A stretch of 64,000 nt of DNA from Oscillospiraceae bacterium (GTDB taxonomy: Bacteria > Bacillota > Clostridia > Oscillospirales > UBA929), in the NCBI GenBank assembly GCA_031550325.1, contig JAVBOR010000013.1:27946-91945 (forward strand). The letters are read 5' to 3'. Within the stretch, counting starts at the first letter, position 1. Each line of letters begins with the position of its first letter. This document shows, one piece after another, positions 150-64,000 of this stretch. The notes beneath the pieces were generated by a model, which did not search any database, was not told the DNA's origin, and was given only the letters and a program-made list of their open reading frames with translations. Made by a program: the position numbers and the translations under genes.

Positions 150-217
150 AATGACACCTTTTTATTTGAGGCAGTTTGGTTTACAACCTTTCCCCTTGAT
201 TTTCACGTACAATACGG

Positions 218-640: not shown

Positions 641-722
641 AGAAACCGCCTCCTCGAACAATAGAATGCTAATAGCCTTCACTATAATAACGATTGAACA
701 GGGGGGTTCACTACAAAATTCT

Positions 723-2288: not shown

Positions 2289-3053
2289 TTGAAAAAGCTT
2301 TTTTGTTTTATAGGTATGATGCTCCTGACTGCGGCAGGGTGTTCAACGCAAAAAACCGGCGACCCTGCAGTGACCGGCGCATCTTTTCAAACATATATAA
2401 GCGAAGCTTTCCCATCCGATCAATCCGTAAAATCTTCCGGCGAGACGGCTTCCGGCTTTGATGAATCTACTGCGGAAGAATCATCAAAGCCCGTTGATCC
2501 GCCTTTACAGCTGCACTTTACCGATTATAAGGCGGAGGTGTCCGCGCTCGCCGGTTTGTTGGATAAAGACGATGAGGTTATTGAGAATTTCCTTTTTGAG
2601 CATTCCGAATACTCGATGAACGGCCTATGCGGCAGAGAAGATATAGAGTTTCTGATGCAAACATTGGATGAGCCGGTTTATCCGGTACATGACAGCGCCG
2701 AACCGGATGAAATAACGCTGCTACGTTTCGGCGATTCCTCCGAAAATATGCAAATCTGGTTGAGATATGAGATTGACGGCGTCGTATACGGATTTACAAT
2801 CACTAAGTTCAGAATTGGTGAGATTATAACGAATAACAAGAGTAATACAACAGATTTGGAACACGTAAGCGCGCTTGAGGATGTGGATATCTACGCTGAT
2901 GCCTTCGAGAATGGTAAAGAGTCAAAAGTAATGACATTTCATCTGGGATTAAAGGGAAAATATATCAACGCAAGAGTATATGACGCAAAGGACTTACAGG
3001 CTGCGCTTGAGGGTCTGCAGGCCTTTGGGTTTAGCAGCCTGAAGATTGAATAG
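2289..3053 (+). CDS. putative lipoprotein, function unknown
   Basis: ORF 2265..3053. The TTG at 2289 (9 nt after GGGAG) gives the signal peptide MKKLFCFIGMMLLTAAGCS with a lipobox. I recognise no family. Confidence 0.5.
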   Translation: MKKLFCFIGMMLLTAAGCSTQKTGDPAVTGASFQTYISEAFPSDQSVKSSGETASGFDESTAEESSKPVDPPLQLHFTDYKAEVSALAGLLDKDDEVIENFLFEHSEYSMNGLCGREDIEFLMQTLDEPVYPVHDSAEPDEITLLRFGDSSENMQIWLRYEIDGVVYGFTITKFRIGEIITNNKSNTTDLEHVSALEDVDIYADAFENGKESKVMTFHLGLKGKYINARVYDAKDLQAALEGLQAFGFSSLKIE

Positions 3054-3110
3054 CGGCTTGCGAGTATGGACAAAGCCATCAACATTACTATGGCAAGTCT
3101 TTTCACGCCG

Positions 3111-4811: not shown

Positions 4812-4829
4812 ATTTATACCCTCCCCGCT

Positions 4830-6569: not shown

Positions 6570-6934
6570 ATAAGCTTCTCCGTCCAATAAAACAAGATCA
6601 TATCAATGCAGAATCACTTTGGAAACCATTATAAGCGCTAATTGCAGGCAGGTCATGCGTTTTTGATTACAAAATCTTTGAAAATCGGTAACAAAGAAAT
6701 GTCGTTACAATCTTTTCACGGGAGTTACACCCGATACGCTATATCCTCAAAAAAGAGCTGTCGATCGGCAATGCCGCCTGACAGCTCAAAGTACAACCAT
6801 AAACACTGAGTGAACTCCCACACAAGAGCGACAAATCCCAGTTCATTTGCAACATATCTGCAACAAGCAGGCCACAAATCCTCGCGGCATCATGCCTCAC
6901 GGCTTTCGTCAACACTCTCCACACGCAGGGGGTC

Positions 6935-6962
6935 AGGGGTTCGAGTCCCTTTGCCTCCACCA
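6935..6962 (+). other. orphan tRNA/tmRNA-like 3' fragment (T-arm, 3' acceptor strand, encoded CCA)
   Basis: AGGGG-TTCGAGT-CCCTT followed by TGCCTCC-A-CCA. The U70-type T implies a G3:U70 Ala/tmRNA identity pair. No complementary 5' acceptor strand (GGRGGCA) is found within 400 nt upstream. Confidence 0.45.
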
Positions 6963-6971
6963 AATGGCGAA

Positions 6972-7001
6972 ACCCCGTACCTGTTTATGGTACGGGGTTT
7001 T
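6972..7001 (+). terminator. rho-independent terminator after the tRNA-like fragment
   Basis: ACCCCGTACC (6972-6981) pairs with GGTACGGGGT (6989-6998) across a 7-nt loop, followed by a TTTT run. Confidence 0.6.
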
Positions 7002-7005
7002 CAGG

Positions 7006-7219
7006 TTGTCAAAGAACCGAAGGTTCTTTGACAAAGCGGGGACAAGATCGCGTCTTTGTGAAGACGCGTAAAGAAACGCTTCCCCGGAGTGAATCCGTGA
7101 AAGCGTTGTGGTTCTTTCTTTATCGGTTTCCAGTCCAGCAAGAACCTGCCGCCTACGGCGTCAGGCTCGACGCGAATCCAGGAAAAGGACGAAGGCGCAA
7201 AGCGTTTTTTTGACAGTCT
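7006..7219. repeat. mosaic palindromic intergenic repeat, copy A
   Basis: Modules: TTGTCAAAGAACC-GAA-GGTTCTTTGACAA (7006-7034); CGCGTCTT-TGTG-AAGACGCG (7049-7068); AACGCTT..CCGGAGTGAATCCGTG..AAGCGTT hairpin (7075-7107). The module CAGTCCAGCA..GCCGCCTACGGCGTCAGGCTC..AAAAGGACGAAGG (7131-7204) is shared with copy E. Confidence 0.85.
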
Positions 7220-21351: not shown

Positions 21352-21568
21352 ACAACAAGCTGCCTGTCGGCAGCGCCTTCTCAAAGACAACACATTATAC
21401 CAAACGCTTTCGCTTTTGTAAAGCATCAAGTGCGCGGGTAAAAAAATTGCTGTGTACGCAAAACCCAGGCGACCGTTTTGCCGCCCGGGAGGGCAAAAAG
21501 CCGCCGCAGCGGTTTGATCCAACCCCCGCTGCCAAAGAACCGGAGGCTCTTCGGCAGAGTTGAATCGT

Positions 21569-22723
21569 TTATTCCCCGTCTTCCGGCCCGGACGGCAGCT
21601 CGACGTCGCGCAGCTTGCGGAGGATCTGCTTTGTGCGCGTACCCGAGAGCGCGTCCAGATCCTTGCCCGCGGCCTCCAGCTTTTTTTGCGCGGCGCTCAG
21701 AAGCTCAGAGAACTTCATAAACTCCGATTTGACCTCGCCAAGAACCGCCCAGACCTCGCCGGTGCGTTTTTGGATGGACAGTGTGCGAAAGCCCATCTGC
21801 AGCGCGTTGAGCAGAGCGGCCATCGTCGTCGGCCCGGCGATATTGATTTTGTAGTCGCGCTGGAGCTGCTCGATCAGGCCCCGGCGCACCACCTCGGCGT
21901 AAAGGCCCTCAAACGGCAAAAAGAGTATGCCGAAGTCGGTGGTGTAGGGCGGCTCGATGTATTTGTCGCGAATCTCCCTGGCAGAGGCCTTCAGCGCGGC
22001 GACGAGCTCGCGCGCGCAGGCGTCGACCAGCGCCCCGTCCCCCGACGCATAGGCGTCGCACAGCGCGCCGTAACGGTCGGAGGGAAACTTGCTGTCGATG
22101 GGCAGCCAAACAGTGCCCGAACCGTCGCCGGGCAGCTTTACGGCGAACTCCACATGGGTGCCGCGCCCCGGGATGACGCCGACATTGACCGCATACTGCT
22201 CGGGCGTGAGCACCTGCTCCAAAATCGCGCCGAGCTGGTACTCCCCCAGAATGCCGCGCGTCTTGACCCCGGAGAGCACCTTTTTCAGGTCGCCCACGCC
22301 GGTGGCCAGCGTCTGCATCTCCCCAAGGCCCTTATAAACCTGCTCAAGGCGCTCGCTGACCAGTTTAAACGAGTTGCCGATGCGCTCATCGAGCGTCTTC
22401 TGCAGCTTGTCCTCCACGGTCAGCCGGATGGCGTCGAGCTTAAGCTGGTTGTCCTGCTGCATCAGCGCAAGGCGTCCGGCCATCATCTCGCGGATTTGGT
22501 CGAGCTTTTGCTCGTTTTGAAGCGAAAACTGCGCCAGCCGCTCGGACAGCTCGCGCAGGCGCTTATCCTGCGCGTCGGCCGACTGGCGCATCGCAGCCAT
22601 TAGCATGTCGGCGGCGGCGCTCTGCGCGGTCCGCGCGCTTTGGTGGGATTGCGCGACAAACACAATGACGCCGATAGAGCACAGGAGCGTCACAACCGAG
22701 ACCGTCAGCACCGCAAGTTCCAT
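21569..22723 (-). CDS. rmuC: DNA recombination protein RmuC
   Basis: 384 aa with an N-terminal TM helix, a long coiled-coil and a C-terminal nuclease-like core (GILGEYQL...VEFAVKLPG...LPIDSKFP...FLPFEGLY), typical of RmuC. Confidence 0.85.
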   Translation of the reverse strand: MELAVLTVSVVTLLCSIGVIVFVAQSHQSARTAQSAAADMLMAAMRQSADAQDKRLRELSERLAQFSLQNEQKLDQIREMMAGRLALMQQDNQLKLDAIRLTVEDKLQKTLDERIGNSFKLVSERLEQVYKGLGEMQTLATGVGDLKKVLSGVKTRGILGEYQLGAILEQVLTPEQYAVNVGVIPGRGTHVEFAVKLPGDGSGTVWLPIDSKFPSDRYGALCDAYASGDGALVDACARELVAALKASAREIRDKYIEPPYTTDFGILFLPFEGLYAEVVRRGLIEQLQRDYKINIAGPTTMAALLNALQMGFRTLSIQKRTGEVWAVLGEVKSEFMKFSELLSAAQKKLEAAGKDLDALSGTRTKQILRKLRDVELPSGPEDGE

Positions 22724-40959: not shown

Positions 40960-42203
40960 GGCGTCGCCTTCCCGCAGGCCTCGTAAACGTCGCGCAGCGC
41001 GACGCCGTGAAGCCGGGCCAGACGCGCCGCGTCCTCGTATTCGGGCGTGACGCGCACGAGTTCTCCGAAGACCGCCCGCTTGACCTTGAGCCGCCCGTAG
41101 ACCGTGTCCACGGACGACTCCGAGCGGGGAAGGCACAGGCGGCTTTCCTCGCGCAGACGCAGCCCCAGCGTTGCCGTCTCGGCAAACAGGATGTCAGCCA
41201 TCGCCCGCGTTAGCTCACTGCGGCAAATCACGGTGAGCTTGACCGCCGGGCGGTTTTTTTTCATGTGTATGGGCGTAAAGAAGACGTCGAGCGCCCCTCC
41301 GGCAAACAGCCGGTCCATCGTATGGCCGAGAAGTTCGGGGGAGCAGTCGTCCAGGTTTGACTCAATGATCGTGACGGGCTCGTCGCCGAGCGTCTCGTCT
41401 GACTCGTACAGCATCACACGCAGCACGTTGGGGATGTTCAGCTCGCGCTCGCCCGCGCCGAGGCCGACACGCTCCAGGCTGCCCTGCGGCATCGTCCCGA
41501 AATGCGTGCAGAGCTCGCAGACGATCGCAGCGCCCGTCGGCGTGCAGAGCTCGCTTTCGATGTCGAGCTGCCTGTACGTCACGCGCGCCTCGGCAAACAG
41601 CGCAGCCACCGCTGGAACGGGGATGGGAATGCGGCCGTGCTGGCTCATCGTAAAGCCGCGGCCGTCGGGGACGACCGAGCAGGTAAAGCGCGCCGCGCCG
41701 AGCATGTCGACCAGTATGGCGACGCCCGCGATGTCGATGATCGAGTCGACCGCGCCGACCTCGTGGAACGTGACGTCCTCGGGGGAGTGGCCGTGAACCC
41801 TGCCCTCGGCGCACGCGAGCCTGTAAAAAATGCGCATGGCCAGATCCTTGGCCCCGGCGGTCAGCCCGCTGTGCTCAAGAAGAGCGGCGATGTCCCTGAA
41901 CGTGCGGTGGTGGTGCTCATGGCCGGCATGATCGTCATGATGGTGGTCATGGTCATGGTGGTCGTGGTGGTCATGGTGGTCGTGATCGTGATCGTGGTGA
42001 TCGTGATCTTCCAGGACGACCTTCACGGCGTTTGCCTCTATTCCGTTTTTAACGCGCCGCCCGATCCTGAGAGACCATCCGTCGACGTCAATCGTGCGAA
42101 GCTGCGCCTCCAGCGCGCGCGCGTCCAGTCCAAGGTCGAGCAGCGCGGCGAGCGTCATGTCGCCGCTGATGCCCGAAACGCAGTCAAAATGCAGGGCTTT
42201 CAT
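40956..42203 (-). CDS. larC: nickel-pincer cofactor biosynthesis protein LarC (nickel insertion)
   Basis: Trimmed to the ATG at comp. 42203 (GGAGGAA upstream). MKALHFDCVSGISGDM start and His/Asp-rich tract (DHDHHDHDHDHHDHHDHHDHDHHHDDHAGHEHHH), typical of the DUF111/LarC family. Confidence 0.85.
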   Translation of the reverse strand: MKALHFDCVSGISGDMTLAALLDLGLDARALEAQLRTIDVDGWSLRIGRRVKNGIEANAVKVVLEDHDHHDHDHDHHDHHDHHDHDHHHDDHAGHEHHHRTFRDIAALLEHSGLTAGAKDLAMRIFYRLACAEGRVHGHSPEDVTFHEVGAVDSIIDIAGVAILVDMLGAARFTCSVVPDGRGFTMSQHGRIPIPVPAVAALFAEARVTYRQLDIESELCTPTGAAIVCELCTHFGTMPQGSLERVGLGAGERELNIPNVLRVMLYESDETLGDEPVTIIESNLDDCSPELLGHTMDRLFAGGALDVFFTPIHMKKNRPAVKLTVICRSELTRAMADILFAETATLGLRLREESRLCLPRSESSVDTVYGRLKVKRAVFGELVRVTPEYEDAARLARLHGVALRDVYEACGKATP

Positions 42204-45027: not shown

Positions 45028-45170
45028 AAAAGCGCTCCAAATCCCGATATCTTCCCCGGTCGCTCATAAGGGGAATCCGTCAACACCTTACACCAAAACG
45101 GGGAAAAAAACAAGGCCTTGCCGCGCCAGCCCTCGTCCGGGAGGCGCGCGTCACAAGGCCCCAAACATAG

Positions 45171-45271
45171 TGCTTTCACGGGTTCACTCCGGGAAAGCGT
45201 TTCTTTGCACGTCTTCGCAAAGACGCGAGCCAGACCCCCGCTTTGTCAAAGAACCCTTGGTTCTTTGACAA
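45171..45271. repeat. mosaic palindromic intergenic repeat, copy B (inverted relative to copy A)
   Basis: Reverse complement of the copy A module order: GCTTTCACGGGTTCACTCCGGGAAAGCG, CGTCTTCGCAAAGACG, then TTGTCAAAGAACC-CTT-GGTTCTTTGACAA (45243-45271). It abuts the stop codon of the 45281 gene. Confidence 0.85.
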
Positions 45272-45280
45272 AGCGTAAGT

Positions 45281-46453
45281 TTACCCCGCCCGCGCGGCGA
45301 GCAGCTGCGCGAAGCGCTCCATGATGCCGGGAATGTCTATGTCCTGCGGGCAGAGCGTGGTGCAGACGCCACAGGCGATACAGGCGGCGGGCAGCTCGGC
45401 TGCCTCCATGGCGTCGAGGGTGAAATTCAGCGTGAAGGGGCGGTCAAACTTCATCTCGTTATACATGGAGATGAGCTTGGGGATGTCCAGCCTCTGCGGG
45501 CAGCCGTCGCAGCAGTAGCGGCAGGCCGTGCACGGGATGAGCTCGGCAAGCTCCTCCACCATGCCCATCAGCAGCGCGTTCTCCTCGGGCGTAGTGGGGT
45601 CGGGGCGGGAGAACAGCTCAATGTTCTCCTGGAGCTGCTCCATGGTGCTCATGCCGCTGAGCACAACCTGAATGTTGGGCAGGCTCTGCAAGAAGCGAAA
45701 GGCCCAGGAGGCGAGGGAGTCGCCAGGGCGTGCGCTCTTCAAAGGGGCGCTTGACGGCTCGTCCAGTTCGGCGAGTTTGCCGCCGCGAACCGGCTCCATG
45801 ACGATCACGGGCAGTCCGTGCGCCCCGATGACCTCGGCCTTTTTGCGTCCGTCCTGCAGCACCCAGTCCACATAGTTGAGCTGGATCTGCACAAACTCAA
45901 AACAGTCGTAGGTGTCCAGGAAGCGGTCAATGGTCTCGGCGCGGCCATGGGCCGAAAAACCCAGATGGCGGATGCGCCCTAACCGTTTTTGCTCCGCAAA
46001 GTATTCCACCATGCGCAGATCGGGGTCGGTGTAAATGCCGTAGGAGGTTTCGCACACGTTGTGCAAAAGGTAAAAGTCGAAATAGTCCACGCCGCACCGC
46101 TTCAGCTGGGTCTCAAAGATTTCCTCGGGGCTGACGGGGGGAAGCCCGCTCATCAGTCCGACAAATTCCAGCTTGCCGTCGGCGTAGCGCATGCTGTGGC
46201 CCGGCATTTTGGAGGCCAGATACCAGCTGTCGCGCGGGTACTGGCGCAGCACGTCTCCGACAAAGCCCTCCGAGTTGCCTCCGTGGTACATGTAGGCAGT
46301 ATCAAAGTAGTTGATGCCGTTCTGGTAGGCATACTCGATCAGCTGCCGCGCCTTTATGGGGTCAATCGCGCTGCGGTCGCCGGTTGTGGGCAGGCGCATA
46401 TTTCCCAAACCAAGCGTGGAGAGCTGCAAGTCCTTAAATGGCTTGTAGATCAT
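45281..46453 (-). CDS. aldo/keto reductase with C-terminal 4Fe-4S ferredoxin-type domain
   Basis: 390 aa. AKR core (LGLGNMRLP...NYFDTAYMYHGGNSE...HLGFSAHG) plus C-terminal Cys clusters (CTACRYCCDGCP and CIACGVCTTLCP). Confidence 0.8.
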   Translation of the reverse strand: MIYKPFKDLQLSTLGLGNMRLPTTGDRSAIDPIKARQLIEYAYQNGINYFDTAYMYHGGNSEGFVGDVLRQYPRDSWYLASKMPGHSMRYADGKLEFVGLMSGLPPVSPEEIFETQLKRCGVDYFDFYLLHNVCETSYGIYTDPDLRMVEYFAEQKRLGRIRHLGFSAHGRAETIDRFLDTYDCFEFVQIQLNYVDWVLQDGRKKAEVIGAHGLPVIVMEPVRGGKLAELDEPSSAPLKSARPGDSLASWAFRFLQSLPNIQVVLSGMSTMEQLQENIELFSRPDPTTPEENALLMGMVEELAELIPCTACRYCCDGCPQRLDIPKLISMYNEMKFDRPFTLNFTLDAMEAAELPAACIACGVCTTLCPQDIDIPGIMERFAQLLAARAG

Positions 46454-46551: not shown

Positions 46552-46622
46552 CCCCCGCTTTGCATAACAGTCTGAAAGCCTCACCCTTGGCGAGGCTTTC
46601 AGACTGTTATGCAAAGCGGGGG
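46552..46622. repeat. 31-bp perfect inverted repeat (hairpin) with 9-nt loop
   Basis: CCCCCGCTTTGCATAACAGTCTGAAAGCCTC (46552-46582) is exactly complementary to 46592-46622. It lies between a ger gene stop (46630) and the AKR start (46453). Confidence 0.9.
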
Positions 46623-46629
46623 AGTTTCC

Positions 46630-47727
46630 CTACGGCGCGTTGATCTGCCTGGACTTCTTCATATGCAGGGCGATGGCCGAGCAGATGAACAGCGCGATGG
46701 GGAACAGCACCTGAAACGGAAGGGCAACCGCCTGTATCAGCTGCAGGCCCGTCTGCAGCTCGGAGATCTGGCCGTAGATAAACAGGGAGAAGACAGAGCA
46801 CATCAGCGCCGCCGGGGCGAAGAACACCTGCCCGTCCGGCATATTGACGAGCTTTGCAAGGCCCTGGCAGCCCGCAAAGACGCACAGCGTGAACTTAAGG
46901 ATGCTTGAGATGAGAACGAACCCCAGCGTGAGCGCTTCAAGGCGCTGGATAAATTGTCCAATCTTGGTAAAGTTTGCCGACTCAAAGGAGGGGAAGTAGA
47001 AGGAGCTGAATGCGTTGCCCCCCAAAACCAGGATGTCGCGAAGCGCGATGACCAGAATAATCAGGTATGCCGCCGCAAAGCCCCCGAAGAACGCCTTGTT
47101 TGTGTTGGGATTTGTCTTTGCAAACGGCAAAACGGCCAGCAGGATCACAGCCTCGCTGAAGGGGAAGGAAAAAATGGCGCTGACCTCCTCGGCCATCTTG
47201 TGAAAGGGCGTGGCGAGCATGGGATACAGGTAGTCCGTGTTAAGGCTGGGAACGGCCGTAATCAGCGTAAAAATCAAAACTGCCGTGGTCACCAAAAAGA
47301 AGAGTGCGCTGAACCGGCCAATGGCGCGCAGGCCCTTTTTCAGCAAATAGATGCCGGAGACGCAGCACATGAGGCTGACCATCAGCTGGGGCGTTTCGGG
47401 CAGAGCGATAATGGTCACAGCCTGCGTATAGTTGCGAATGAAGAGCGCGCCGAAGATAAAGATATACAGCGTATACAGGGCGACCACGATCTTCCCGAAC
47501 AGCGCCCCGAACCGCTCGGTGATGATGTCAAACAGGGTTTTCCCCGGATTCATCTTCAGCAGGCGCATAAATACGAGCAGGAGCGGGAGGAAAATCACGC
47601 CCGCCATCAGCAGGGCCAGCCAGTGATCCTGCTTGGTGGCGTGCCGTATGGACACAAGCGAGCTGCCCTCCCAAAACAAAACGGAGATGCAGAAGATCTG
47701 AAACGTTGTGAGCCGGACCTTGCTCAT
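46630..47727 (-). CDS. germinant receptor B subunit (GerAB/GerKB, APC-superfamily permease-like)
   Basis: Trimmed to the second ATG (comp. 47727): MSKVRLTTFQIFCISVLFWEGSSLV. Ten hydrophobic helices, typical Spore_permease sequence. Confidence 0.8.
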   Translation of the reverse strand: MSKVRLTTFQIFCISVLFWEGSSLVSIRHATKQDHWLALLMAGVIFLPLLLVFMRLLKMNPGKTLFDIITERFGALFGKIVVALYTLYIFIFGALFIRNYTQAVTIIALPETPQLMVSLMCCVSGIYLLKKGLRAIGRFSALFFLVTTAVLIFTLITAVPSLNTDYLYPMLATPFHKMAEEVSAIFSFPFSEAVILLAVLPFAKTNPNTNKAFFGGFAAAYLIILVIALRDILVLGGNAFSSFYFPSFESANFTKIGQFIQRLEALTLGFVLISSILKFTLCVFAGCQGLAKLVNMPDGQVFFAPAALMCSVFSLFIYGQISELQTGLQLIQAVALPFQVLFPIALFICSAIALHMKKSRQINAP

Positions 47728-47751
47728 GGGTGCGCCCCCCTTATAAGATAC

Positions 47752-47797
47752 TGTCAAAGAACATTTTTCCTTTGACAAAGACCGTAGACAAACCCCG
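47752..47797. repeat. degenerate member of the palindromic repeat family, copy C
   Basis: TGTCAAAG-N10-CTTTGACA (47752-47777) followed by GTAGACAAACC, a module also present in copy E. It lies between two genes of the ger operon. Confidence 0.55.
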
Positions 47798-47808
47798 CAG
47801 TCGCACGG

Positions 47809-48018
47809 TCAGGAGGAGAACAGGGCGGGAAAGGCCTGATACAGCAGGTCGAAGATCGAAACGGCGGGCGTGCTGAGAAAGAGCAGCCCGGCAATGCCAA
47901 GCGTCAACAGGGACAGCACGAGGTAGACCACGGCCTCCTTGCGGGGCCAGGGGAGCATCTTCAGGTCCGCCGCAAAGCAGACGGCGAGCACAAGGGCTAC
48001 GGCGAGAAACAGAAGCAT
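47809..48018 (-). CDS. small two-TM membrane protein inside the ger operon (D-subunit-like)
   Basis: 69 aa, two hydrophobic helices (LLFLAVALVLAVCFAA and VVYLVLSLLTLGIAGLLFL). Its start lies 17 nt downstream of the GerC-type gene's stop (48036), and it is followed by the B-subunit gene. Confidence 0.5.
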   Translation of the reverse strand: MLLFLAVALVLAVCFAADLKMLPWPRKEAVVYLVLSLLTLGIAGLLFLSTPAVSIFDLLYQAFPALFSS

Positions 48019-50734: not shown

Positions 50735-50885
50735 TTGATGCGCCCCCTTATCAATGCATGCCGATAGTATGCAGAAAACACGCGGAATTATACGAAAGAC
50801 ATCGAATCGGGCCGCTGTTCAGGAGCCTACGGCGCATAAGCAAAACGGGAGAGGTGTCGCGTTTTTGCAAATGAGCGCAAAGAAA

Positions 50886-50950
50886 GGCTTTCCCGGAATG
50901 AATCCGGGAAAGCCTCATAGACTGTCTAAGAACCTTTGGTTCTTTGACAA
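50886..50950. repeat. mosaic palindromic intergenic repeat, copy D
   Basis: Perfect hairpin GGCTTTCCCGG-AATGAAT-CCGGGAAAGCC (50886-50914), then TGTCTAAGAACC-TTT-GGTTCTTTGACAA (50923-50950). It lies between the copA stop and the gerA start. Confidence 0.85.
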
Positions 50951-50986: not shown

Positions 50987-53473
50987 TCAGCCGACAACCT
51001 CGTATCCCGCGTCCTGGACGGCCTTGCGCAGAAGCGCGTCGTCCACGGAAGCCGAGGTCTCCACAGAGGTCGGCCCATCCAGACTGACGTCGGCGCGCGT
51101 GACGCCCGGAACATCCTCCAGGGCCTTTTTGACGGCATTTACGCAGTGCATGCAGTTCATGCCTTCGATGTGCAGCGTTTTGGTCATGGGGAGCATCTCC
51201 TTTGATTTATGCCGCGGCTTTGGCGCAAAAAAGCGCAGACGCAGCGCATTGAGGACTACGGTGACCGAACTGAGACTCATGGCGGCGGCGGCGACCATGG
51301 GATTGAGCAAAATGCCGCCCGACAGGTAAAACACCCCGGCCGCCACCGGAATGCAGACGATATTGTAAAAAAACGCCCAGAACAGGTTTTGCTTGATGTT
51401 GCGCATGACCGCGCGGCTGAGCTCAATGGCCGTGGCCACGTCGGCAAGGTCGCTCTTGATCAGCACGATATCGGCGGCCTCTATGGCGATGTCGGTTCCG
51501 GCGCCGATGGCGATGCCGACATCGGCGCGCGTCAGCGCGGGCGCGTCGTTGATGCCGTCCCCTACCATGGCCACCTTTTTATGGACCTGCTGCAGCGCGC
51601 GCACCTGCCGCTCCTTATCCTGGGGCAGCACATCGGCCACAAACGCATCGATCCCCACCTGCGCCGCAATAGCCTTGGCGGTCACGGCGTTGTCCCCGGT
51701 CAGCATGACAACGTCGAGGCCCATTTGGAAAAGGCGCGCGACGGCCGCCTTGCTTGAGTTTTTTGGCGCGTCGGCCACGGCGATGACGCCCAGAAGCGTG
51801 TCGCCGCGCGCGACAAACAGCGGCGTTTTGCCCCCCGCAGCCAGCTCGGCAGCCCGCGCGTCAAAGCCGTCAAGAGAGAGGCCGGAGAGCAGCTTTTTGT
51901 TGCCCGTGCGGCAAAGCTGGCCGTCCAAAACTCCCTGAATGCCCTGGCCGGGGATCTGGCGGTAGTCAGCCACGGCGCTCAGCGTTAGGCCCTCGGCATC
52001 GGCCATCGCGAGGATGGGGCCGCCGAGCGGATGGCCGGACAGCTTTTCAAGCGACGCGGCGACCAACAGCAGCGCCGAGGCCGGTACGCCGTGGGGAAGC
52101 AGATCGGTCACAGCGGGCTTCCCCTCGGTGACGGTGCCGGTCTTGTCCAGTACCACGGTGTCCACGCCGCCCGCGACCTCGAGCGACTCGGCTGACTTGA
52201 TCAAAATGCCGTTGGCTGCCCCGCGGCCCGTACCCACCATAATGGCCGTGGGCGTCGCCAGCCCAAGCGCGCAGGGGCAGGAAATGACAAGCACCGAAAT
52301 GGCCACAGAGAGCGAAAACGCCAGCCCGTAGCCCAAAAGCATCCACACGGCAAACGTGGTCAGCGCAATCAGGATAACCGTCGGGACAAAAATGCCGCTG
52401 ATTTTATCGGCGAGTCTGGCAATCGGCGCCTTGGAGGACGTGGCGTCCTCGACCAGCCTGATGATGCCCGAGAGCGTGGTGTTCTCCCCAACGGCCGTGG
52501 CCTTAAAGACCAGGTAGCCCGATGAGACAGCGGTGCCTGCGATGACGCGGTCGCCCGGGTTCTTGTCCACAGGCAGGCTCTCGCCCGAGATGGCTGCCTC
52601 GTCAATCGAGGCGTACCCCTCCAAAACAAGACCGTCGACCGGGACGGCGCCTCCGGCGCGGACAACCAGCGCTTCGCCCAGCTGCACGTCGTCAACGGGT
52701 ATTTCGGCTTCGGCACCGCCGCGCAGGACAAAGGCAGTCTTCGGCGCGAGATCCATGAGCTTTGATAGCGCGTCCGAGGTGCGGCTCTTGGCGCGCGTTT
52801 CAAAGTATTTTCCCAGGGTGATCAGCGTGAGGATCATAGCAGCCGACTCAAAGTAAAGGTTCATCGAATACTCGTGGACGAGCGCCATGTCGCCGTGGCC
52901 GAGGCCGTAAGCCATGCAAATAAGCGCGAAAACGCCGTAAAGTGTCGCGGCCGAGCTTCCCATGGCGATCAGGGCGTCCATGTTTGGCGCAAGTTTTACA
53001 AGGCCGCGAAAGCCATGCCGAAAGTACGCTTGATTGGCAAACAGTACGGGAAGCAGCAGCAAAAACTGCGTCAGCGCCGCGATCACCGCGTTGTCCATGC
53101 CGGTAAGCAGACCGGGAAGCGGCCAGGAGAACATCCCGCCCATCGCTAAATAAAACAGCGGCACCGTAAATAGGGCCGAAACAATCAGCCGCGTCCGAAA
53201 CCCTTTCAGGGCCTGCCGGGCGGGGTTTGCGGACTCGGTCAAAACGGCCTTTTCCGCGCCGCCTTTTAAAGAGGCACCGTAGCCAAGCGCTTCGACGGCG
53301 CGGATGATTTCGCCGCGCTTAAGCGCCTGACCGTCAAAGCTGACGGTCATGAGACCGGTCAGCAGGTTGACGCTGACGGCACTGACTCCCGGGAGCCGGG
53401 AAACGCCCTTTTCAACGCGCGCCGAACAGGCCGAGCACGTCATCCCCGTGACGGCAAAACTCGCCTTTTCCAT
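50987..53473 (-). CDS. copA: copper-translocating P1B-type ATPase with N-terminal and C-terminal HMA domains
   Basis: 828 aa. N-terminal GMTCSACSARV, CPC motif SCPCALGLATP, DKTGT phosphorylation site, GDGINDAP. An extra C-terminal HMA domain is present (MTKTLHIEGMNCMHCVNAV...). Confidence 0.95.
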   Translation of the reverse strand: MEKASFAVTGMTCSACSARVEKGVSRLPGVSAVSVNLLTGLMTVSFDGQALKRGEIIRAVEALGYGASLKGGAEKAVLTESANPARQALKGFRTRLIVSALFTVPLFYLAMGGMFSWPLPGLLTGMDNAVIAALTQFLLLLPVLFANQAYFRHGFRGLVKLAPNMDALIAMGSSAATLYGVFALICMAYGLGHGDMALVHEYSMNLYFESAAMILTLITLGKYFETRAKSRTSDALSKLMDLAPKTAFVLRGGAEAEIPVDDVQLGEALVVRAGGAVPVDGLVLEGYASIDEAAISGESLPVDKNPGDRVIAGTAVSSGYLVFKATAVGENTTLSGIIRLVEDATSSKAPIARLADKISGIFVPTVILIALTTFAVWMLLGYGLAFSLSVAISVLVISCPCALGLATPTAIMVGTGRGAANGILIKSAESLEVAGGVDTVVLDKTGTVTEGKPAVTDLLPHGVPASALLLVAASLEKLSGHPLGGPILAMADAEGLTLSAVADYRQIPGQGIQGVLDGQLCRTGNKKLLSGLSLDGFDARAAELAAGGKTPLFVARGDTLLGVIAVADAPKNSSKAAVARLFQMGLDVVMLTGDNAVTAKAIAAQVGIDAFVADVLPQDKERQVRALQQVHKKVAMVGDGINDAPALTRADVGIAIGAGTDIAIEAADIVLIKSDLADVATAIELSRAVMRNIKQNLFWAFFYNIVCIPVAAGVFYLSGGILLNPMVAAAAMSLSSVTVVLNALRLRFFAPKPRHKSKEMLPMTKTLHIEGMNCMHCVNAVKKALEDVPGVTRADVSLDGPTSVETSASVDDALLRKAVQDAGYEVVG

Positions 53474-54413: not shown

Positions 54414-54659
54414 CTAACGCCGCGTCCGCACCGCGGTGATTTTGTCGGCGGCAACGCACAGGAAGGCCGGCGACCGGCTTCTTGAGCCGTTGGGGCAGAC
54501 AAGCGTGAGCGCCTGCGGGTCGGCCCTCAGCAAAACTCCGCAAAACGGCGGCGCACCTGACGCCGTGTACACGCTTATCATTTGTCCGACCTTGTCGGCA
54601 AATGGCGACGCCCTGCCGCGGCCGCTGAGCGGATCCGCGTAGTTTTGAACCATCAGCAC
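54414..54659 (-). CDS. small protein (81 aa), paralogue of the N- and C-terminal parts of the Cys/Gly-repeat protein
   Basis: GTG at comp. 54659, 8 nt after AAAGGAGG. MLMVQNYADPLSGRGRASPFADKVGQMISVYTASGAPPFCGVLLRADPQALTLVCP...AADKITAVRTRR. This is the 3' part of track ORF 54414..55289. Confidence 0.45.
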   Translation of the reverse strand: MLMVQNYADPLSGRGRASPFADKVGQMISVYTASGAPPFCGVLLRADPQALTLVCPNGSRSRSPAFLCVAADKITAVRTRR

Positions 54660-54770
54660 CGCGCGCGCCTCCTTTTTTTCAAATCGGGCCACTGGCAACG
54701 CTCTCTGTTCAGCATATGATGAGAGTGTGGCGTTCGTTACGCCCTTTAGAGTTGAAAGGAGACAGAATAC

Positions 54771-55244
54771 ATGGCAGATTGGTACGATTGCCGCGAGGAA
54801 AACTCGGTCAGGCGTACGCTGCGCAGGAATGTTGGCAGAGTCTGTACGGTGTTTACCACGGCTGGCGGCTGCGCCGGCGGGGGGTTTACCGGCCTCGTGG
54901 CCAACGTGAATGACGACAGCTGTAAAGTAATCACCGCGCTCCCGGCCGCAGATGAGCTCCGGCCGTTCGGCCCCGTGAACGGCTGCGGCTGCGGACGCGG
55001 AGACGGAGGCTGCGGCTGCGGACGCGGAGACGGAGGCTGCGGTTGCGGGCGCGGCGACAGAGGCTGCGGAGGCAGAAGCTGTGGCTGCGGAAACGGAAAC
55101 AGAGGCTGCGGGCGCGGAAGCAGGGGCTGCGGCTGCGGAAACAGAGGCAGCGACTGCGGCGGCAGAAGCCGCGGGGATGTGCTGGGCACCTCCTGCACCA
55201 TTCCGATCGATCAGATCACTTGTGTGGCGACCCCTGAGATATAA
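54771..55244 (+). CDS. Cys/Gly-rich repeat protein (157 aa), function unknown
   Basis: ATG 8 nt after AAAGGAGA. The N-terminal VGRVCTVFTTAGG..GFTGLVANVNDDSCKVIT and C-terminal TIPIDQITCVATPEI segments flank GCGCGRGDG x3 plus degenerate G-x repeats (about 20 Cys). Confidence 0.6.
   Translation: MADWYDCREENSVRRTLRRNVGRVCTVFTTAGGCAGGGFTGLVANVNDDSCKVITALPAADELRPFGPVNGCGCGRGDGGCGCGRGDGGCGCGRGDRGCGGRSCGCGNGNRGCGRGSRGCGCGNRGSDCGGRSRGDVLGTSCTIPIDQITCVATPEI
54981..55061 (+). repeat. 27-bp tandem repeat x3 inside the Cys/Gly-rich gene
   Basis: GGCTGCGGCTGCGGACGCGGAGACGGA occurs at 54981-55007 and 55008-55034 (identical). A diverged third unit lies at 55035-55061. Degenerate units continue to about 55175. 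Confidence 0.9.
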
Positions 55245-55282
55245 CGCGCGAGCTCTGCCCAAAGCCGTCGCTGCTCTTCGTT

Positions 55283-55690
55283 TTGTCAAAGAACCAATGG
55301 TTCTTTGACAGTCTCAGGGCGTTCCCGGAGTAAATCCGGGAACGCCCTGAGACTGTAGACAAACCTTCGATTTGTCTGCAAACGGGAGCAGGAACGCGTC
55401 TTTGTGAAGACGCGCATTGGGTGGCTTTCCCGGAGTGAATCCGTGAAAGCGTAGTGGTTCTAATATTTTTCGCCTGTCAAGCCTCATTCGTCCTCGCGGG
55501 CGGTCGTCCTTCGCCTTGCGGCTTTTGAACCGGTCGCCCCTTTGGGGCGCGTGCGCTTCAAAACGCCTCCAGGCTCCAGGCCTACCTGCTCGGGCGCTCG
55601 GCTCTTCTTATTTCAGTCCAGCAGGGACCCGCCGCCTTCGGCGTCAGGCTCAATGGGAAAGCCGAAAAAGGACGAGGACACCTGCGCGCT
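55283..55690. repeat. mosaic palindromic intergenic repeat, copy E (largest composite copy)
   Basis: Modules: TTGTCAAAGAACC-AAT-GGTTCTTTGACA (55283-55310); 18-bp perfect hairpin (55311-55353); GTAGACAAA..TTTGTCTGC (55354-55380); CGCGTCTT-TGTG-AAGACGCG (55395-55414); GCTTTCCCGGAGTGAATCCGTGAAAGC (55424-55450). The distal module (55614-55680) matches 7131-7204. Confidence 0.85.
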
Positions 55691-59622: not shown

Positions 59623-59712
59623 TATTAATGACCTTACATCAGCTGGCTTTACGCTGCATGACACAAGCGCCATTACCAATAAAGAGGATAAACAAGAAAG
59701 GGAGAGTCAAAC

Positions 59713-62700
59713 ATGAAACAAAAGCTCAGCGCCATCCTGTCTCTCGCGCTTGTGCTGACCATGCTCTGCGGGATGATCCCCATGAGCGCGGCAGCCCTGC
59801 CCGCCAACGCGAACTCCGCCGAAACCAAAGGCGGCGAGGCGTTCAACACACCCGAGGAAATTGAGGACATGACTCCGGTCGAACTGGCCATTTCCAAGCT
59901 CAGCGTCGCCTCGCTTGCCGACCGTGAGCCTGTGGTGTACGCGCGCAGACTGTACACCAAGCTGTCCGCCGCGGACAAGGAAAATGTACGCAACTACGCG
60001 CAGTTGCTGGCCGCCGAAGCACAGATTCTGAGGCTGTGGATTCTTGACCTCAACGAAGGCACCGCCGAGGCCCCCGAGATCAGCTTTGGCACCTCCTTTG
60101 GCCTTTGGGTCCTCTTTGAGGAACTGGACGGCATGAACGACACGCAGAAAGCCATTGTCGGCGAGGACGCGATCGAGATCCTCGAGGGGATGCAGGCGTA
60201 CGAGAGCGACGTGCTGTTGCCTGCCTTCAAGGCGGACTACGACCTGGCCAAGGCCGTGGACAAGGCGATCATGGAGATGGATCCGGCCAACACCGATGAG
60301 GTCGCAGCAACCAGAGCCGCCTATGATGGCCTGACAAGCTTTCAGAAGACCATTGTCGTTTACTACGATGTGCTGAAAAAAGCAGAAGGCATTGACGGAG
60401 TTATCCCCGAAAACATCAAGTATGTCGGCACGCGCGCCTCGGGCTACGGCCTGAGCTACTCCAAGGAAGACTGGCAGAGCATTGACGACCAGCTGCAGGG
60501 TTACTTCCCCGATGCGGAGTCTACTTATGTTTGGATTGTGGCGCTGCTCGGCGGCAACAACGGCCCGGCCGGCGGCTGCAACGTCGATGTTGACTTCACC
60601 ACCATCCAGGACGAAGACGGCAAGTACATGGGCAAGACGCAGGCCGAGTGGCTCAGTGAGAACATCGCGTTCCGCGCGCCGAACGCCTCGCAGACTTCCC
60701 AAATTGACTTTTTGAATTATTTTGATGAAAACAACATCAACGTGTATCTGCAGGTCGAATCGGGTTATGCGGACATGAAGACGCTGATGGACATCCTGTA
60801 CGACGTGTACGACATCACCAGTCACAAGAGCGTCAAGGGCTTCGCCATCGACGTCGAGTGGTATTATGGCGTCACCGAGGACTCGGGCATTCCCGTGACA
60901 GACGCGATGGCGCAGAGCTGGAACGAATACCTGTACAGCACCTGGGGCGCCGGCTATAAACTCGTTTTAAAGCACTACGGCCTGACCTGGCTGCCACCCG
61001 CGTACCGCGGCGGCGAGACCGGCGAGGGCTATCTGCCCAGCGAGAAGATTATCTTCTGTGACGACAGCCAGAGCTTCGGCTCGATGGACGGTCTTGTCGG
61101 CGGCGTGTACGACGAAAACGACGTCCGCGACGGCTACCGCCCCGGCTTTGCTCCGGAGTTCCGCATTTTTGCCGACTACTTCCCGGAAAACGAGATCATC
61201 TATCAAATCGGCTACCAGCCCGACCGCCAGTGGTTCTATAACTTTGGCGACCCGGTCATCAAGAACTTTGCCGTGAAGATGGCCGAGGCAACCAACCCGA
61301 ACCAGAATATTGGCATCGCGTGGGTGAACTTCTCGATCAAAGATCCGCTGACCTTCCCGCAGATGCTGAAGACCGACGCCGAGAAAGCCAGCGCGGTCAA
61401 CGGCCTTTTGAACTACCTGTCGGCCACCGGCTCGAACAACCTCGTCGGCCGCCGCCTTACGGGCGACCGTCAGCCGGCGGTGCTGGGCGACGCTTTGTTT
61501 GTCACGCGTGTGCGTCAGCTTTACGACGCGCTGACCGAGGACCAGAAGGCGCGCCTCACGGCCAGCCGCGTGACCAGACTTCTGACGGTTGAGCCCGTTG
61601 CGCTCGACGTGCGCATCGACCTGCAGATTCCCGCCATTGAGGATCTGCGCAAGAAGGATACCGGCGCTGTCTCGGAAGTCTGGGCCATTTATCTGGCGCT
61701 GACTGAAGACCAGAAAGCCGCCGTCCAAAACATCGAAAAGCTTTTGGCCGCCCGTGAGCGCATTGAGCAGCTCAACAACGAGATTGACGACATGAGCGCT
61801 GTTGAGCAGGCCATCGACAACCTTTCGGTCACCTCCGTCGCCGACCGCGAGGCCGTGGTGCGCGCGCGCAGGCTGTACACCAAGCTGTCCAGCGCGGACA
61901 AGGAAAATGTGCGCAACTACAGCAAGCTTCTGACTGCCGAGGCGCGGATGCTTAAGCTGTGGATCCTCGACCTGAACGAGGGCACCATGGAGGCCCCGGC
62001 GATCTCCTTTGAAATGTCGCAGGGTCTGTGGGCGCTGGCCGACCAGCTGAGCGGCATGAGCGACACGCAGAAGGCCATTATCGGCGCCGAAAGCATCGCG
62101 CTGCTGGGCAAGCTGCAGGAACTCCGCGCCGGACACCTGCAAAACTTCAAGGCCCAGTACAATCTGGCCAAGGCCGTTGACAAGGTCATCCTGGCCATGG
62201 ACCCGGCCAATCCCGAAGAGGTCGCGGCTGCCAGAGCCGCCTATGAGGGCCTGACGAGCTTCCAGAAGACCGCCGTTCTGTACTATGAAGTGCTGAAAAA
62301 GGCCGAGGGCATCAACGATCTGATCCCGGCCAACCTCAAGTACATCGGCACGCGCGCCTCGGGCTACGGCCTGAGTTACTCCAAGGAGGACTGGCAGAGC
62401 ATTGACGACCAGCTGCAGGGCTACGCGCCCGACGCGGAGTCGGCTTATGTCTGGATTGTGGCTCTGCTCGGCGGCAACAACGGCCCTCTCGGCGGCTGCA
62501 ACATCGACGTCGACTTTGCCACCATCCAGGACGAAGACGGCAAGTACATGGGCAAGACGCAGGCCGAGTGGCTCAGCGAGAACATTTCGTTCCGCGCGCC
62601 AAACGCCTCGCAGACTTCCCAAATTGACTTTTTGAATTACTTTGACGAAAACAACATCAACGTGTATCTGCAGGTCGAATCGGGCTTCGCGGATATGAAG

Positions 62701-64000
62701 ACGCTGATGGACATCCTGTACGACGTGTACGACGTGGCTGACCATAAGTGCGTTAAGGGCTTTGCCATCGACGTCGAGTGGTATAACGGCGTGACCGAGG
62801 ACTCGGGTCTGCCCGTGACCGACGCGATTGCGCAGAGCTGGAACGAATACCTGTACAGCACCTGGGGCGCAGGCTACAAGCTGTTCCTGAAGCACTTCGG
62901 CTCGACCTGGCTGCCCAAAACCTACCGCGGCGGCGAGACCGGCGAGGGCTATCTGCCCAGCGAAAAGCTCGTGTTCTGCAACGACGCGCAGGGCTACGGC
63001 TCGATGGACGGCAGTGTCGGCGGCATTTACGACGACAGCGCCGCCCGCGACGGCGACGTGATGGGCGCCGGCTCTCAGTTCCGTCTGTTTGCCGACTTCT
63101 ATCCCGAAAACGAAATTGTTCTCCAGATCGGCTACCAGCCCGACCGCCAGTGGTTCTATAACTTTGACGATCCGATCATCAAGAGCTTCGCCGTGAAGCT
63201 GGCCGAGAATATGAACCCCAATCAGGACATCGGCATCGCGTGGGTGAACTTCTCGATCAAAGATCCGCTGACCTTCCCGCAGATGCTGAAGACCGACGCC
63301 GAGAAAGCCAGCGCGGTCAATGGCCTTTTGAACTACCTGTCGGCCACCGGCACGAACAACATCGTCGGACGCCGCCTTACGGGCGACCGTCAGCCGGCGG
63401 TGCTGGGCGACGCGCTGTATGTCACGCGGATGCGCGCGCTTTATGACGCGCTGACCGAAGACCAGAAGGCGCGTCTCACGGCCAGCCGCGTGACCAGACT
63501 CCTGGCGGTTGAGCCCGTTGCGCTCGACGTGCGCATTGACCTGCAGATTCCCGCCATTGAGGATCTGCGAGAGAAAGACGTCGCGACCATCTACACGGTT
63601 TGGGATATCTATCAGGCGCTGACCGAAGACCAGAAAGCCGCTGTCCAAAACATCGAAAAGCTTTTGGCCGCCAAGGCGTTTGCCGACGGCCTGGCCCCGG
63701 TGATCACCCAGTTTGTGGTCAACCCCGGCGCAATTGTGGGCACGCTTGCCGCCAACATCAAGGTCATTGCTGTCGGCCAGAATCTGGAGAGCGCCGTGGT
63801 GTACCTGAAGGACGGCGAGAGTAAGATCGGCTTGACCTCTATTGCCGGCGGCTCGGTGATGATCCGGGTCAACGCGGCTCCGGCTGTGACCGAGGACACG
63901 GTCTATGAAGTGGTCGCCGAGGCAAACGGCGTGGTGCTCAGCGTGGGAACCATTGTAATCAAGCCCTACAGCACCGACATCTGGACGGTCTCGGCCCTGC
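59713..64000 (+). CDS. giant secreted protein (>1429 aa, 3' end outside the window) made of two tandem ~641-aa modules; putative glycan-active enzyme of unknown family
   Basis: ATG 59713 after AGGGAGAG. I translated it codon by codon to 64000 with no stop. It is absent from the ORF track because it is open-ended. Signal peptide MKQKLSAILSLALVLTMLCGMIPMSAAA. Alternating strand/helix pattern with GFAIDVEWY, LQVESG and IGIAWVNF motifs. Confidence 0.85.
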   Translation, partial: MKQKLSAILSLALVLTMLCGMIPMSAAALPANANSAETKGGEAFNTPEEIEDMTPVELAISKLSVASLADREPVVYARRLYTKLSAADKENVRNYAQLLAAEAQILRLWILDLNEGTAEAPEISFGTSFGLWVLFEELDGMNDTQKAIVGEDAIEILEGMQAYESDVLLPAFKADYDLAKAVDKAIMEMDPANTDEVAATRAAYDGLTSFQKTIVVYYDVLKKAEGIDGVIPENIKYVGTRASGYGLSYSKEDWQSIDDQLQGYFPDAESTYVWIVALLGGNNGPAGGCNVDVDFTTIQDEDGKYMGKTQAEWLSENIAFRAPNASQTSQIDFLNYFDENNINVYLQVESGYADMKTLMDILYDVYDITSHKSVKGFAIDVEWYYGVTEDSGIPVTDAMAQSWNEYLYSTWGAGYKLVLKHYGLTWLPPAYRGGETGEGYLPSEKIIFCDDSQSFGSMDGLVGGVYDENDVRDGYRPGFAPEFRIFADYFPENEIIYQIGYQPDRQWFYNFGDPVIKNFAVKMAEATNPNQNIGIAWVNFSIKDPLTFPQMLKTDAEKASAVNGLLNYLSATGSNNLVGRRLTGDRQPAVLGDALFVTRVRQLYDALTEDQKARLTASRVTRLLTVEPVALDVRIDLQIPAIEDLRKKDTGAVSEVWAIYLALTEDQKAAVQNIEKLLAARERIEQLNNEIDDMSAVEQAIDNLSVTSVADREAVVRARRLYTKLSSADKENVRNYSKLLTAEARMLKLWILDLNEGTMEAPAISFEMSQGLWALADQLSGMSDTQKAIIGAESIALLGKLQELRAGHLQNFKAQYNLAKAVDKVILAMDPANPEEVAAARAAYEGLTSFQKTAVLYYEVLKKAEGINDLIPANLKYIGTRASGYGLSYSKEDWQSIDDQLQGYAPDAESAYVWIVALLGGNNGPLGGCNIDVDFATIQDEDGKYMGKTQAEWLSENISFRAPNASQTSQIDFLNYFDENNINVYLQVESGFADMKTLMDILYDVYDVADHKCVKGFAIDVEWYNGVTEDSGLPVTDAIAQSWNEYLYSTWGAGYKLFLKHFGSTWLPKTYRGGETGEGYLPSEKLVFCNDAQGYGSMDGSVGGIYDDSAARDGDVMGAGSQFRLFADFYPENEIVLQIGYQPDRQWFYNFDDPIIKSFAVKLAENMNPNQDIGIAWVNFSIKDPLTFPQMLKTDAEKASAVNGLLNYLSATGTNNIVGRRLTGDRQPAVLGDALYVTRMRALYDALTEDQKARLTASRVTRLLAVEPVALDVRIDLQIPAIEDLREKDVATIYTVWDIYQALTEDQKAAVQNIEKLLAAKAFADGLAPVITQFVVNPGAIVGTLAANIKVIAVGQNLESAVVYLKDGESKIGLTSIAGGSVMIRVNAAPAVTEDTVYEVVAEANGVVLSVGTIVIKPYSTDIWTVSAL
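59866..63672 (+). repeat. in-frame tandem duplication (two units, offset 1920-1923 nt) inside the giant gene
   Basis: 59866-61749 aligns with 61789-63672. This includes a perfectly identical 89-nt run (61312-61400 = 63232-63320). The protein modules are mostly identical by eye. Confidence 0.9.

Follow-up and report, generated by a model that had tools for sequence, protein, structure and literature searches.

The 64,000-nt stretch of DNA analysed here, which originates from an uncultured, spore-forming Oscillospiraceae bacterium of the gut type and is referred to below as the window, carries several copies of a 29-bp palindromic core, TTGTCAAAGAACC-N3-GGTTCTTTGACAA, in which two 13-bp arms are arranged across 3 bp. 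We consider it reasonably probable that the core and the hairpins attached to it represent a non-coding, non-autonomous and dispersed palindromic repeat family that is located just downstream of genes in Oscillospiraceae and that spreads or is turned over at the DNA level. The family is apparently undescribed. The core was searched for with at most 3 mismatches, and the expectation was taken from shuffled sequence. Four matches with 0 to 2 mismatches were obtained in 64 kb (7006-7034, 45243-45271, 50922-50950 and 55283-55311), compared to 0.00 expected. An original prediction made from the sequence alone had named palindromic cores at the same four positions, and all were found again, with the third starting at 50922 and not at 50923. 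The 13-nt half-site occurred 14 times at up to 2 mismatches, compared to 1.3 expected. Two further copies are degenerate and a related palindrome has arms of 34 nt, which brings the window to seven palindromes, listed here without strand and with their position relative to genes:

7006-7034: core copy 1, with 13-nt arms and the loop GAA; separated by 4 nt from the preceding U-tract of terminator hairpin 6970-7001, which trails a 3' fragment of transfer-messenger RNA (tmRNA)
21529-21557: variant solo core, CTGCCAAAGAACC-GGA-GGCTCTTCGGCAG; 11 nt past the stop codon of an rmuC-like gene (21569-22723, minus strand)
45239-45275: core copy 2, with arms lengthened to 17 nt (CGCTTTGTCAAAGAACC); 5 nt past the stop codon of an aldo-keto reductase/4Fe-4S gene (45281-46453, minus strand), with the recG start 212 nt downstream
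46552-46622: related palindrome with 34-nt arms that are 97% complementary and built from flank words of the family; 7 nt past the stop codon of a spore-germination permease gene
47751-47808: degenerate core (47751-47778) and the word GTAGACAAACC (47784-47794); 30 nt past the stop codon of an open reading frame (ORF) for a 69-amino-acid membrane protein (47809-48018, minus strand) and approximately 23 nt before the likely permease ATG
50922-50950: core copy 3, with 2 mismatches in the left arm; 36 nt past the stop codon of the copper P-type ATPase gene copA (50987-53473, minus strand)
55283-55311: core copy 4; 38 nt past the stop codon of an ORF for a Cys/Gly-rich repeat protein (54771-55244, plus strand)

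All seven palindromes are intergenic and occur 4-43 nt past a stop codon or an RNA 3' end, in accordance with the earlier description of the copies as lying mostly just past stop codons. The gap to the next start codon varies from approximately 23 to 600 nt, and the genes beside the copies are unrelated (recG, the gerA operon, copA, ROK, rmuC and an ssrA remnant). Partial co-transcription of the copies is probable, given their location past a stop codon and ahead of the next promoter. Copy 2 precedes the stem and U7 terminator of the aldo-keto reductase gene. The degenerate core, formerly placed at 47752-47777, is present at 47751-47778, and its accessory word GTAGACAAACC is shared with copy 4. 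As had been anticipated, the repeat also generates spurious ORFs: those at 46630-47778 and 54414-55289 both begin at a TTG within a core. The variant core at 21529-21557, the palindrome at 46552-46622 (composed of the flank words CCCCGCTTTG, ACAGTCT and GAAAGCCTC) and the degenerate core-arm ends of the accessory hairpin unit and of copy 1 had escaped the original prediction. The variant arm of the 21529-21557 core (TTGCCGAAGAACC) also heads a full element in one of the relatives' loci (L002).

The core is not confined to the window. Scanning one genome per species with the core pattern AAGAACC-N3-GGTTCTTTGACA yielded 24 matching stretches, 18 of which contained a total of 19 core copies. These copies came from seven Oscillospiraceae/Clostridiales assemblies, one of which is labelled Bacteroidaceae, with 1 to 6 copies each that were frequently located at contig ends. 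The other six stretches (four from Aenigmatarchaeota and two from low-GC Ruminiclostridium) matched on one strand, lacked the second core arm and were rejected as family members. In L006, L011, L014 and L015, which are metagenome-assembled genomes (MAGs) of Aenigmatarchaeota and other archaea, the one-strand matches sit in arrays of distinct, similar palindromes (CAAAGAAnn...nnTTCTTTG) that appear to be an independent palindromic repeat family of DPANN archaea. In 14 full copies from the relatives, the core stands at the head of a conserved element of approximately 190 nt. After the core come three A/T-flanked hairpins enclosed by a stem, GCCTCGC/GCGAGGC, then a T-run and GACAG(N)CTGA. The left end, TCAG(N)CTGTCAAAGAACC, and the right end, GGCTTTTTGACAG(N)CTGA, of these 14 copies are imperfect inverted copies of about 18 nt, and copy 1 of the window has the same type of end. 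Short forms consisting of the core and the last 20 nt only also exist. One of them (L016) is found at the site that, in the orthologous locus L019, holds a full copy, and the sequences suggest that it arose when internal DNA was lost at a CAAAAAA microhomology. Two orthologous pairs drawn from different species-level assemblies had 98-99% identity in the element, compared to 91-96% in the flanks. The original reading as a dispersed family was supported and extended to other genomes: the same core occurs in seven other assemblies and a related element in Vescimonas fastidiosa.

The latter was identified when the relatives' element was compared with plasmid records by BLAST, which returned a single record, an 861-kb replicon of V. 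fastidiosa MM35, matched in 20 places. At least 9 full and 4 short copies occur in 140 kb of this replicon, mostly just past a terminator. The core arms vary among the copies, yet remain complementary (GAAAAACCC/GGGTTTTTC, AAAAATTCC/GGAATTTTT and GAAAAAAC/GTTTTTTC). The original prediction had proposed a comparison of orthologous sites between strains, and for these related elements presence/absence variation was observed at all three MM35 sites examined against close strains or a sister species. At site 1, between the cyclase gene and the GATase/MurT genes, MM35 carries 270 nt composed of a hairpin, the element and the same hairpin a second time. The site is empty in nine contigs whose cyclase is 98% identical and in the examined contig with 85% identity, which have a 45-49-nt spacer with a single, different and simple terminator; the same 49-nt spacer is present in the remaining 85%-identity contigs, as far as these extend to the next gene. 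At site 2, between the response regulator and transporter genes, the element is present in MM35, while a 91%-identity relative has a plain terminator. A 97%-identity relative (L051) is without the element and has instead a palindrome whose arms equal the right end of the element (TTTTGACGCGCT). The terminators at this site differ among all four relatives. At site 3 (DUF1667 and glpP), a syntenic sister species keeps the hairpin upstream of the MM35 element, and lacks the element itself. The sister species has a partial copy between groES and groEL, with no counterpart detected in the MM35 stretch in which these two genes lie. From these filled and empty orthologous sites we therefore concluded that the related Vescimonas elements are gained or lost on the time scale of strains.

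Further observations were made at the same Vescimonas loci. The terminators at orthologous sites are wholly different in sequence downstream of the response-regulator gene (L051, L060, L068 and L029) as well as downstream of the cyclase gene (L041, L062, L068 and L029). The flanking proteins at both sites are 85-98% identical, and this clade appears to swap entire terminator hairpins. The MurT/GATase pair beside the cyclase gene is inverted between two Vescimonas groups (L031-L040 versus L041-L050 and L029) whose cyclases are 97-98% identical to that of MM35; one MM35 element is located where the inverted segment meets the cyclase side, and a further one beyond the flippase gene adjoining the other end of the segment. 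A second repeat family, GC-rich hairpins ending in CCCCTAC(A/G), was found in the intergenic DNA of Vescimonas, in L029 (18900-19230) and upstream of the cyclase gene in L031, L036, L042 and L043. On the opposite strand it reads GTAGGGG, the REP/RAYT-type signature, which is missing from the family of the window.

Within the window, the core is joined to accessory hairpin modules. The module hp2, CGCGTCTT-TGTG-AAGACGCG, occurs at 7049 and 55395, in a variant form at 45208 and in a weaker one at 50857; the first three were expected from the original prediction and borne out by the repeat finder, which added the fourth. Similarly, hp3 was recovered at all four sites named before (7078, 45172 in inverted orientation, 50887 and 55424; the second and third are shifts of 1 nt), and the center of an 18-bp perfect hairpin is hp3-like, giving five hp3-type hairpins in total. 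The repeat finder joined hp2 and hp3 to a unit present four times (7034-7115, 50843-50924, 55380-55461 and, inverted, 45163-45238), which terminates in a degenerate half-core (GTGGTTCT...). The modules are arranged as follows:

7035-7125, plus strand: hp2-hp3 unit of copy 1 (hp2 at 7049-7068, hp3 at 7078-7104), ending in the degenerate half-core GTGGTTCTTTCTTTA
7128-7219, plus strand: distal module of copy 1, with the terminal half-core TTTTTTTGACAGTCT (7205-7219) at its end
45163-45238, minus strand: hp2-hp3 unit of copy 2, reverse complement of the copy 1 unit (83%)
50843-50921, plus strand: hp2-hp3 unit of copy 3, on the other flank of the core, its orientation opposite to that of the upstream gene
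55311-55379, plus strand: 18-bp perfect hairpin with hp3-type center (55311-55353), then a small degenerate core-like hairpin (55356-55378)
55380-55461, plus strand: hp2-hp3 unit of copy 4, with 83% identity to copy 1 and the half-core GTGGTTCT at its end
55462-55610, plus strand: insert of about 150 nt that copy 1 is without, a nested imperfect palindrome with arms like GGCTTTTGAAC...GTTCAAAA
55611-55690, plus strand: distal module of copy 4, 82% identical to 7128-7192

The 18-bp hairpin at 55311-55353 and a distal module common to two loci (7128-7192 and 55611-55675, 82% identity) had been described before and are both present, and the variable order and orientation of core and hairpins was seen for hp2, hp3 and the distal modules. 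The hp2-hp3 unit follows the orientation of the upstream gene in copies 1, 2 and 4 and is reversed in copy 3. On the minus strand, the copy 2 unit is followed by a canonical stem and U7 terminator at approximately 45100-45160. By nhmmer, no homology was detectable between the hp2, hp3 and distal modules of the window and the hairpin domain of the relatives' element; the core and the half-core end are all that both have in common. We therefore regard the core as the conserved, recognised part. Scanning metagenomes with a degenerate hp3 pattern gave 2 matches, which is about the number expected by chance, one in coding DNA and the other a lone terminator-like hairpin. The latter, at 974-1004 of a metagenome contig of 70% GC (L026), reads GCGCTTTCCCGGAGTGAATCCGGGAAAGCGC, is identical to hp3 of the window in stem and loop, and follows a stop codon; with matches at chance level, this identity is probably a coincidence. 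Judged from these sequences, hp2 and hp3 seem to remain private to the source organism.

Several observations weigh against the proposed spread at the DNA level or limit it. The evidence for mobility comes, as far as the sequences tell, from the related Vescimonas elements and not from the copies of the window. Two Vescimonas copies are located in divergent promoter regions and not at 3' ends. No transposase or Y1/RAYT domain was found among the approximately 40 window proteins scanned, and no protein family recurs beside the cores in the relatives' loci, where RAYT is likewise missing. An all-versus-all BLAST of core-adjacent ORFs returned orthologous neighbors and two paralogous sporulation sigma factors only, and no transposase adjoins any of the approximately 45 copies seen. 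Regular target-site duplication was not seen either. Fourteen of the 17 full copies whose flanks were compared have none, and the other three have a repeated 24-30-nt hairpin that is variable in length and possibly inverted rather than direct. Three of the nine full Vescimonas copies and one MAG copy are bracketed on both sides by the same terminator hairpin of 24-30 nt, an arrangement unlike the outcome of classical DDE transposition. Since the bracketing hairpins are palindromic, direct and inverted repeats look alike; in L021, the inverted similarity of the flanks extends over approximately 60 nt. At site 1, the bracketing hairpin of MM35 differs from the terminator of the empty strains, so that simple insertion with target duplication is not proven. 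The MM35 lineage may earlier have acquired another terminator in place of the resident one and then duplicated it; alternatively, the hairpins may have come with the element. Finally, conservation above that of the flanks could mean a cellular function and not selfish spread.

Database searches gave no assignment to a known family. With Rfam 15, the window and 16 relatives' loci returned only tRNAs, a purine riboswitch and pemK at gathering score, and at a relaxed threshold the elements matched generic hairpin (miRNA) models only. The window element had no BLAST match in the plasmid collection, the core pattern was absent from 2.9 million viral contigs, and a literature search on the 13-mer and on repeat elements of these taxa found nothing relevant. 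Known sites were compared as well: the LexA (Cheo) box was rejected because the spacing, GAAC-N5-GTTC, does not fit, and the Spo0A box, parS, the Noc site and dif were rejected as well. An integron attC site was dismissed, as the R' motif GTTRRRY is missing, and so were invertons, as the orientation of core to module is constant within the relatives' elements.

Among the alternatives, we first considered that the copies are cis-acting RNA elements or small RNA genes, i.e. stabilisers in 3' untranslated regions, processing sites, attenuators or independent small RNAs, with spread being secondary. Copy 2, situated between a stop codon and the stem and U7 terminator, must be transcribed with the upstream gene, and its hp2 variant retains a G-U pair on the sense strand. 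The elements of the window fold very stably compared to shuffled sequence (z-scores of -8.2, -5.8, -4.8 and -4.1), the closing stem GCCTCGC/GCGAGGC followed by T5 resembles a terminator, and orthologous copies are better conserved than their flanks. RNAalifold predicted 50 pairs for the relatives' element, 11 of which display compensatory double changes. However, the paired cells of the stems comprise 661 Watson-Crick (about 95%), 22 G-U (about 3%) and 11 A-C combinations; half of the G-U cells belong to one pair at a stem end, and without that pair G-U and A-C are even at 11 versus 11. So little wobble pairing with no strand bias is unusual for a selected RNA and favors a DNA palindrome. In addition, the orientation to the upstream gene is not fixed (copy 3 versus copies 1, 2 and 4; L010 versus L013), the units have no promoter-like site at their head, copy 4 is split by the 150-nt insert, no Rfam family was matched, and the modules differ entirely among lineages while the palindromic core is retained. 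Taken together, we consider an RNA function as the primary role of the repeats unlikely.

The repeats could also be relics of insertion sequences (IS), with the core representing two terminal inverted repeats abutted as in the junction of an IS circle or tandem, and the modules representing subterminal IS DNA left after loss of the transposase. The arms do face each other via GGTTC ends across 3 bp, a third, imperfect arm copy terminates the full elements, and L051 has a palindrome of two element-end sequences at a site that is filled in MM35. The arm GGTTCTTTGACAAAG may resemble the IS6-family end GGTTCTGTTGCAAAG. Against this origin, none of the approximately 45 copies has a transposase beside it, an 8-bp duplication was not seen, and neither the viral contigs (core) nor the plasmid collection (window element) gave a match. 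Moreover, the core arms co-vary among the Vescimonas copies, which would be unexpected for a fixed transposase site within one genome. Derivation from an IS thus appears quite doubtful.

Binding sites of a single palindrome-recognising transcription factor or nucleoid protein, forming a regulon or organising the chromosome, would explain perfect 13-bp arms that are identical across several species, as in protein-recognised sites, and three window copies are also upstream of genes on the same strand (recG, gerAA and the germination permease gene). This explanation is nevertheless very improbable. The copies always stand 4-43 nt from the preceding stop but 23 to 600 nt or so from the next start, their neighboring genes are unrelated, additional hairpin modules accompany them, arm changes are compensated in the relatives, and related elements are present or absent among strains; the operator of one regulon, which would have spoken against a dispersed repeat, is accordingly not what was found. 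Ordinary intrinsic terminators, alike by chance or local duplication, would fit sites directly after genes, the 4-10 nt between the relatives' core and a canonical terminator, and the quick turnover at these sites between strains, but are hardly credible, as the core has no U-tract (T-run) on either strand or side, the canonical cores were not flagged by a terminator scan, copy 1 follows a complete terminator while copy 2 precedes one, and convergence cannot account for the presence of the same 29 bp in seven further assemblies.

We compared the dispersed palindromic family with known repeat systems. The likeness to BIME/REP, BOX or Correia-type elements suggested in the original prediction was supported only as a resemblance, and not as membership in a specific class. 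Like REP/BIME elements of Enterobacteria and Pseudomonas, which are associated with RAYT, the repeats are short extragenic palindromes after genes that form mosaics of variable order and orientation, keep their stems by compensated changes, occur in many copies per relative's genome and possibly affect mRNA 3' ends. Clustered, repeated palindromes in mosaics were found (seven intergenic ones in 64 kb), and this density is compatible with the hundreds of copies per genome typical of REP. In contrast, the foot of the palindrome lacks GTAG/CTAC; the core is flanked by CAGG, CGCT, AGAC and CGTT, and GTAG appears only in the accessory word GTAGACAAACC at two sites. Furthermore, no RAYT (Y1 transposase) was seen in the window or beside any copy, the core is a perfect palindrome with 13-bp arms that is identical across species, whereas REPs are usually species-specific and imperfect, and the full elements are approximately 190 nt long with inverted-repeat ends.

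Miniature inverted-repeat transposable elements (MITEs), such as Correia in Neisseria, RUP in S. pneumoniae and bcr1 in the Bacillus cereus group, share with the family non-coding units of 100-200 nt, terminal inverted repeats of about 15-20 nt, strong fold-back, intergenic position, presence or absence among strains, and full as well as internally deleted forms. Units below approximately 300 bp with terminal inverted repeats were found in the 14 relatives' copies and in copy 1 of the window, and the polymorphism expected of a MITE was seen at three of three MM35 sites. A direct target duplication of fixed length was not detected in the 17 full copies, and nothing corresponds to the short TA or TTTAT of MITEs. 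In addition, the core doubles one of the two ends into a hairpin, some copies have an entire terminator hairpin on either side, and no parent IS is known for the family, none with matching ends having been found in the window, the relatives' loci or the annotated Vescimonas regions. BOX elements of Streptococcus pneumoniae, also a Firmicute, are similarly modular (boxA-boxB-boxC compared to core, hairpin modules and end), variable in content, stably folding and intergenic. They share no sequence similarity with the family, whose modules are palindromic and occur in both orientations, and whose conserved module spans genera while the others are private to lineages. On our analysis, the best reading is that the family would work like REP/BIME elements or MITEs, yet passes the defining tests of neither class. 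Its distinctive features are a 29-bp core that is identical across genera while the modules are replaced, near-pure Watson-Crick palindromes, and hairpin-bracketed copies.

A full element is built from the core, a lineage-specific hairpin block and a terminal imperfect copy of one core arm; because of this terminal arm it has inverted-repeat ends and can form a self-folding unit. In the window, the core is joined to the private modules hp2, hp3 and distal in variable order and orientation, resulting in the BIME-like mosaic of the original prediction. Turnover at the DNA level would comprise insertion beside terminator hairpins or as their replacement, loss of internal parts, inversion and lengthening of palindromes, and most likely involve hairpin or cruciform intermediates that are read by a putative trans-acting protein recognising the conserved arm. 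As 3' stem-loops, the copies may stabilise transcripts or damp read-through as a secondary effect. A bolder proposal, to which we assign a low probability, is that the conserved 29-bp palindrome is the handle of a hairpin- or cruciform-directed DNA process undescribed in Firmicutes, in which a protein recognising the core arm moves cassettes, or copies them by fold-back, onto terminators. Such cassettes would replace or duplicate the entire terminator hairpin, so that one copy of it would stand on each side of the element. This process would explain the nested palindromes, the varying yet complementary arms and the fast turnover of terminators between close strains.

The window has a GC content of 58%, and coding strands were assigned from GC at codon positions and from ribosome-binding sites. 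Its genes include those for GerAA/AB/AC, RecG, a copper ATPase, IleRS and a phosphate-binding protein (PBP_like_2), and this gene content indicates a spore-forming Firmicute. The closest relative of the window RecG is 66% identical, and several of the nearest named ones are labelled Oscillospiraceae; two loci (31 kb) around the nearest RecG showed no core and no synteny with the window. Upstream of copy 1, positions 6928-6962 (context 6590-7001) correspond to no more than the 3'-terminal stretch, approximately 35 nt, of a tmRNA (T-arm, acceptor 3' strand and CCA), followed by a good terminator. Neither ARAGORN nor Rfam found a complete tmRNA, and a matching 5' acceptor strand is absent upstream. 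The fragment looks like the displaced 3' end (att remnant) of an element integrated into ssrA; no integrase was found within 1-6600. The small ORF upstream of copy 4 (54771-55244, plus strand) has a strong ribosome-binding site, AAAGGAGA, and encodes a Cys/Gly-rich product with tandem 21/27-nt repeats at 54960-55194 (GCGCGRGDG...). The protein has no match in Pfam or NCBIfam and may be of the spore-coat type. Elsewhere, 59700-64000 contains a large internal duplication with a period of 1920-1923 nt and 74-91% identity within a long plus-strand frame that exceeds the window end; the minus-strand ORFs listed there, in which GC peaks at codon position 1, are antisense artefacts. A 9-nt-period repeat, TGGTCATGG/TGGTGGTCG, at 41941-41997 (minus strand) inside a nickel-insertion (LarC-like) gene probably encodes a His-rich tract.

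Among gut bacteria, Oscillospiraceae rank with the most abundant and the least cultured ones, and with no Rfam model and no paper found on the 13-mer, hardly anything has been described of their repeats. A structured repeat that is present at gene ends in multiple copies breaks metagenome assemblies, and many copies were indeed located at contig ends; it also generates false ORFs and start codons, with two examples in the window. Strains with 97-98% identity in the flanking proteins exchange intergenic DNA at the sites that the repeat marks. Judging from the copies bracketed by hairpins, the chemistry of insertion may differ from that of ordinary transposition, and the identity of the core across genera, with its attachments replaced, points to a sequence-specific partner. 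As V. fastidiosa MM35 is cultured, the related element is open to laboratory testing.

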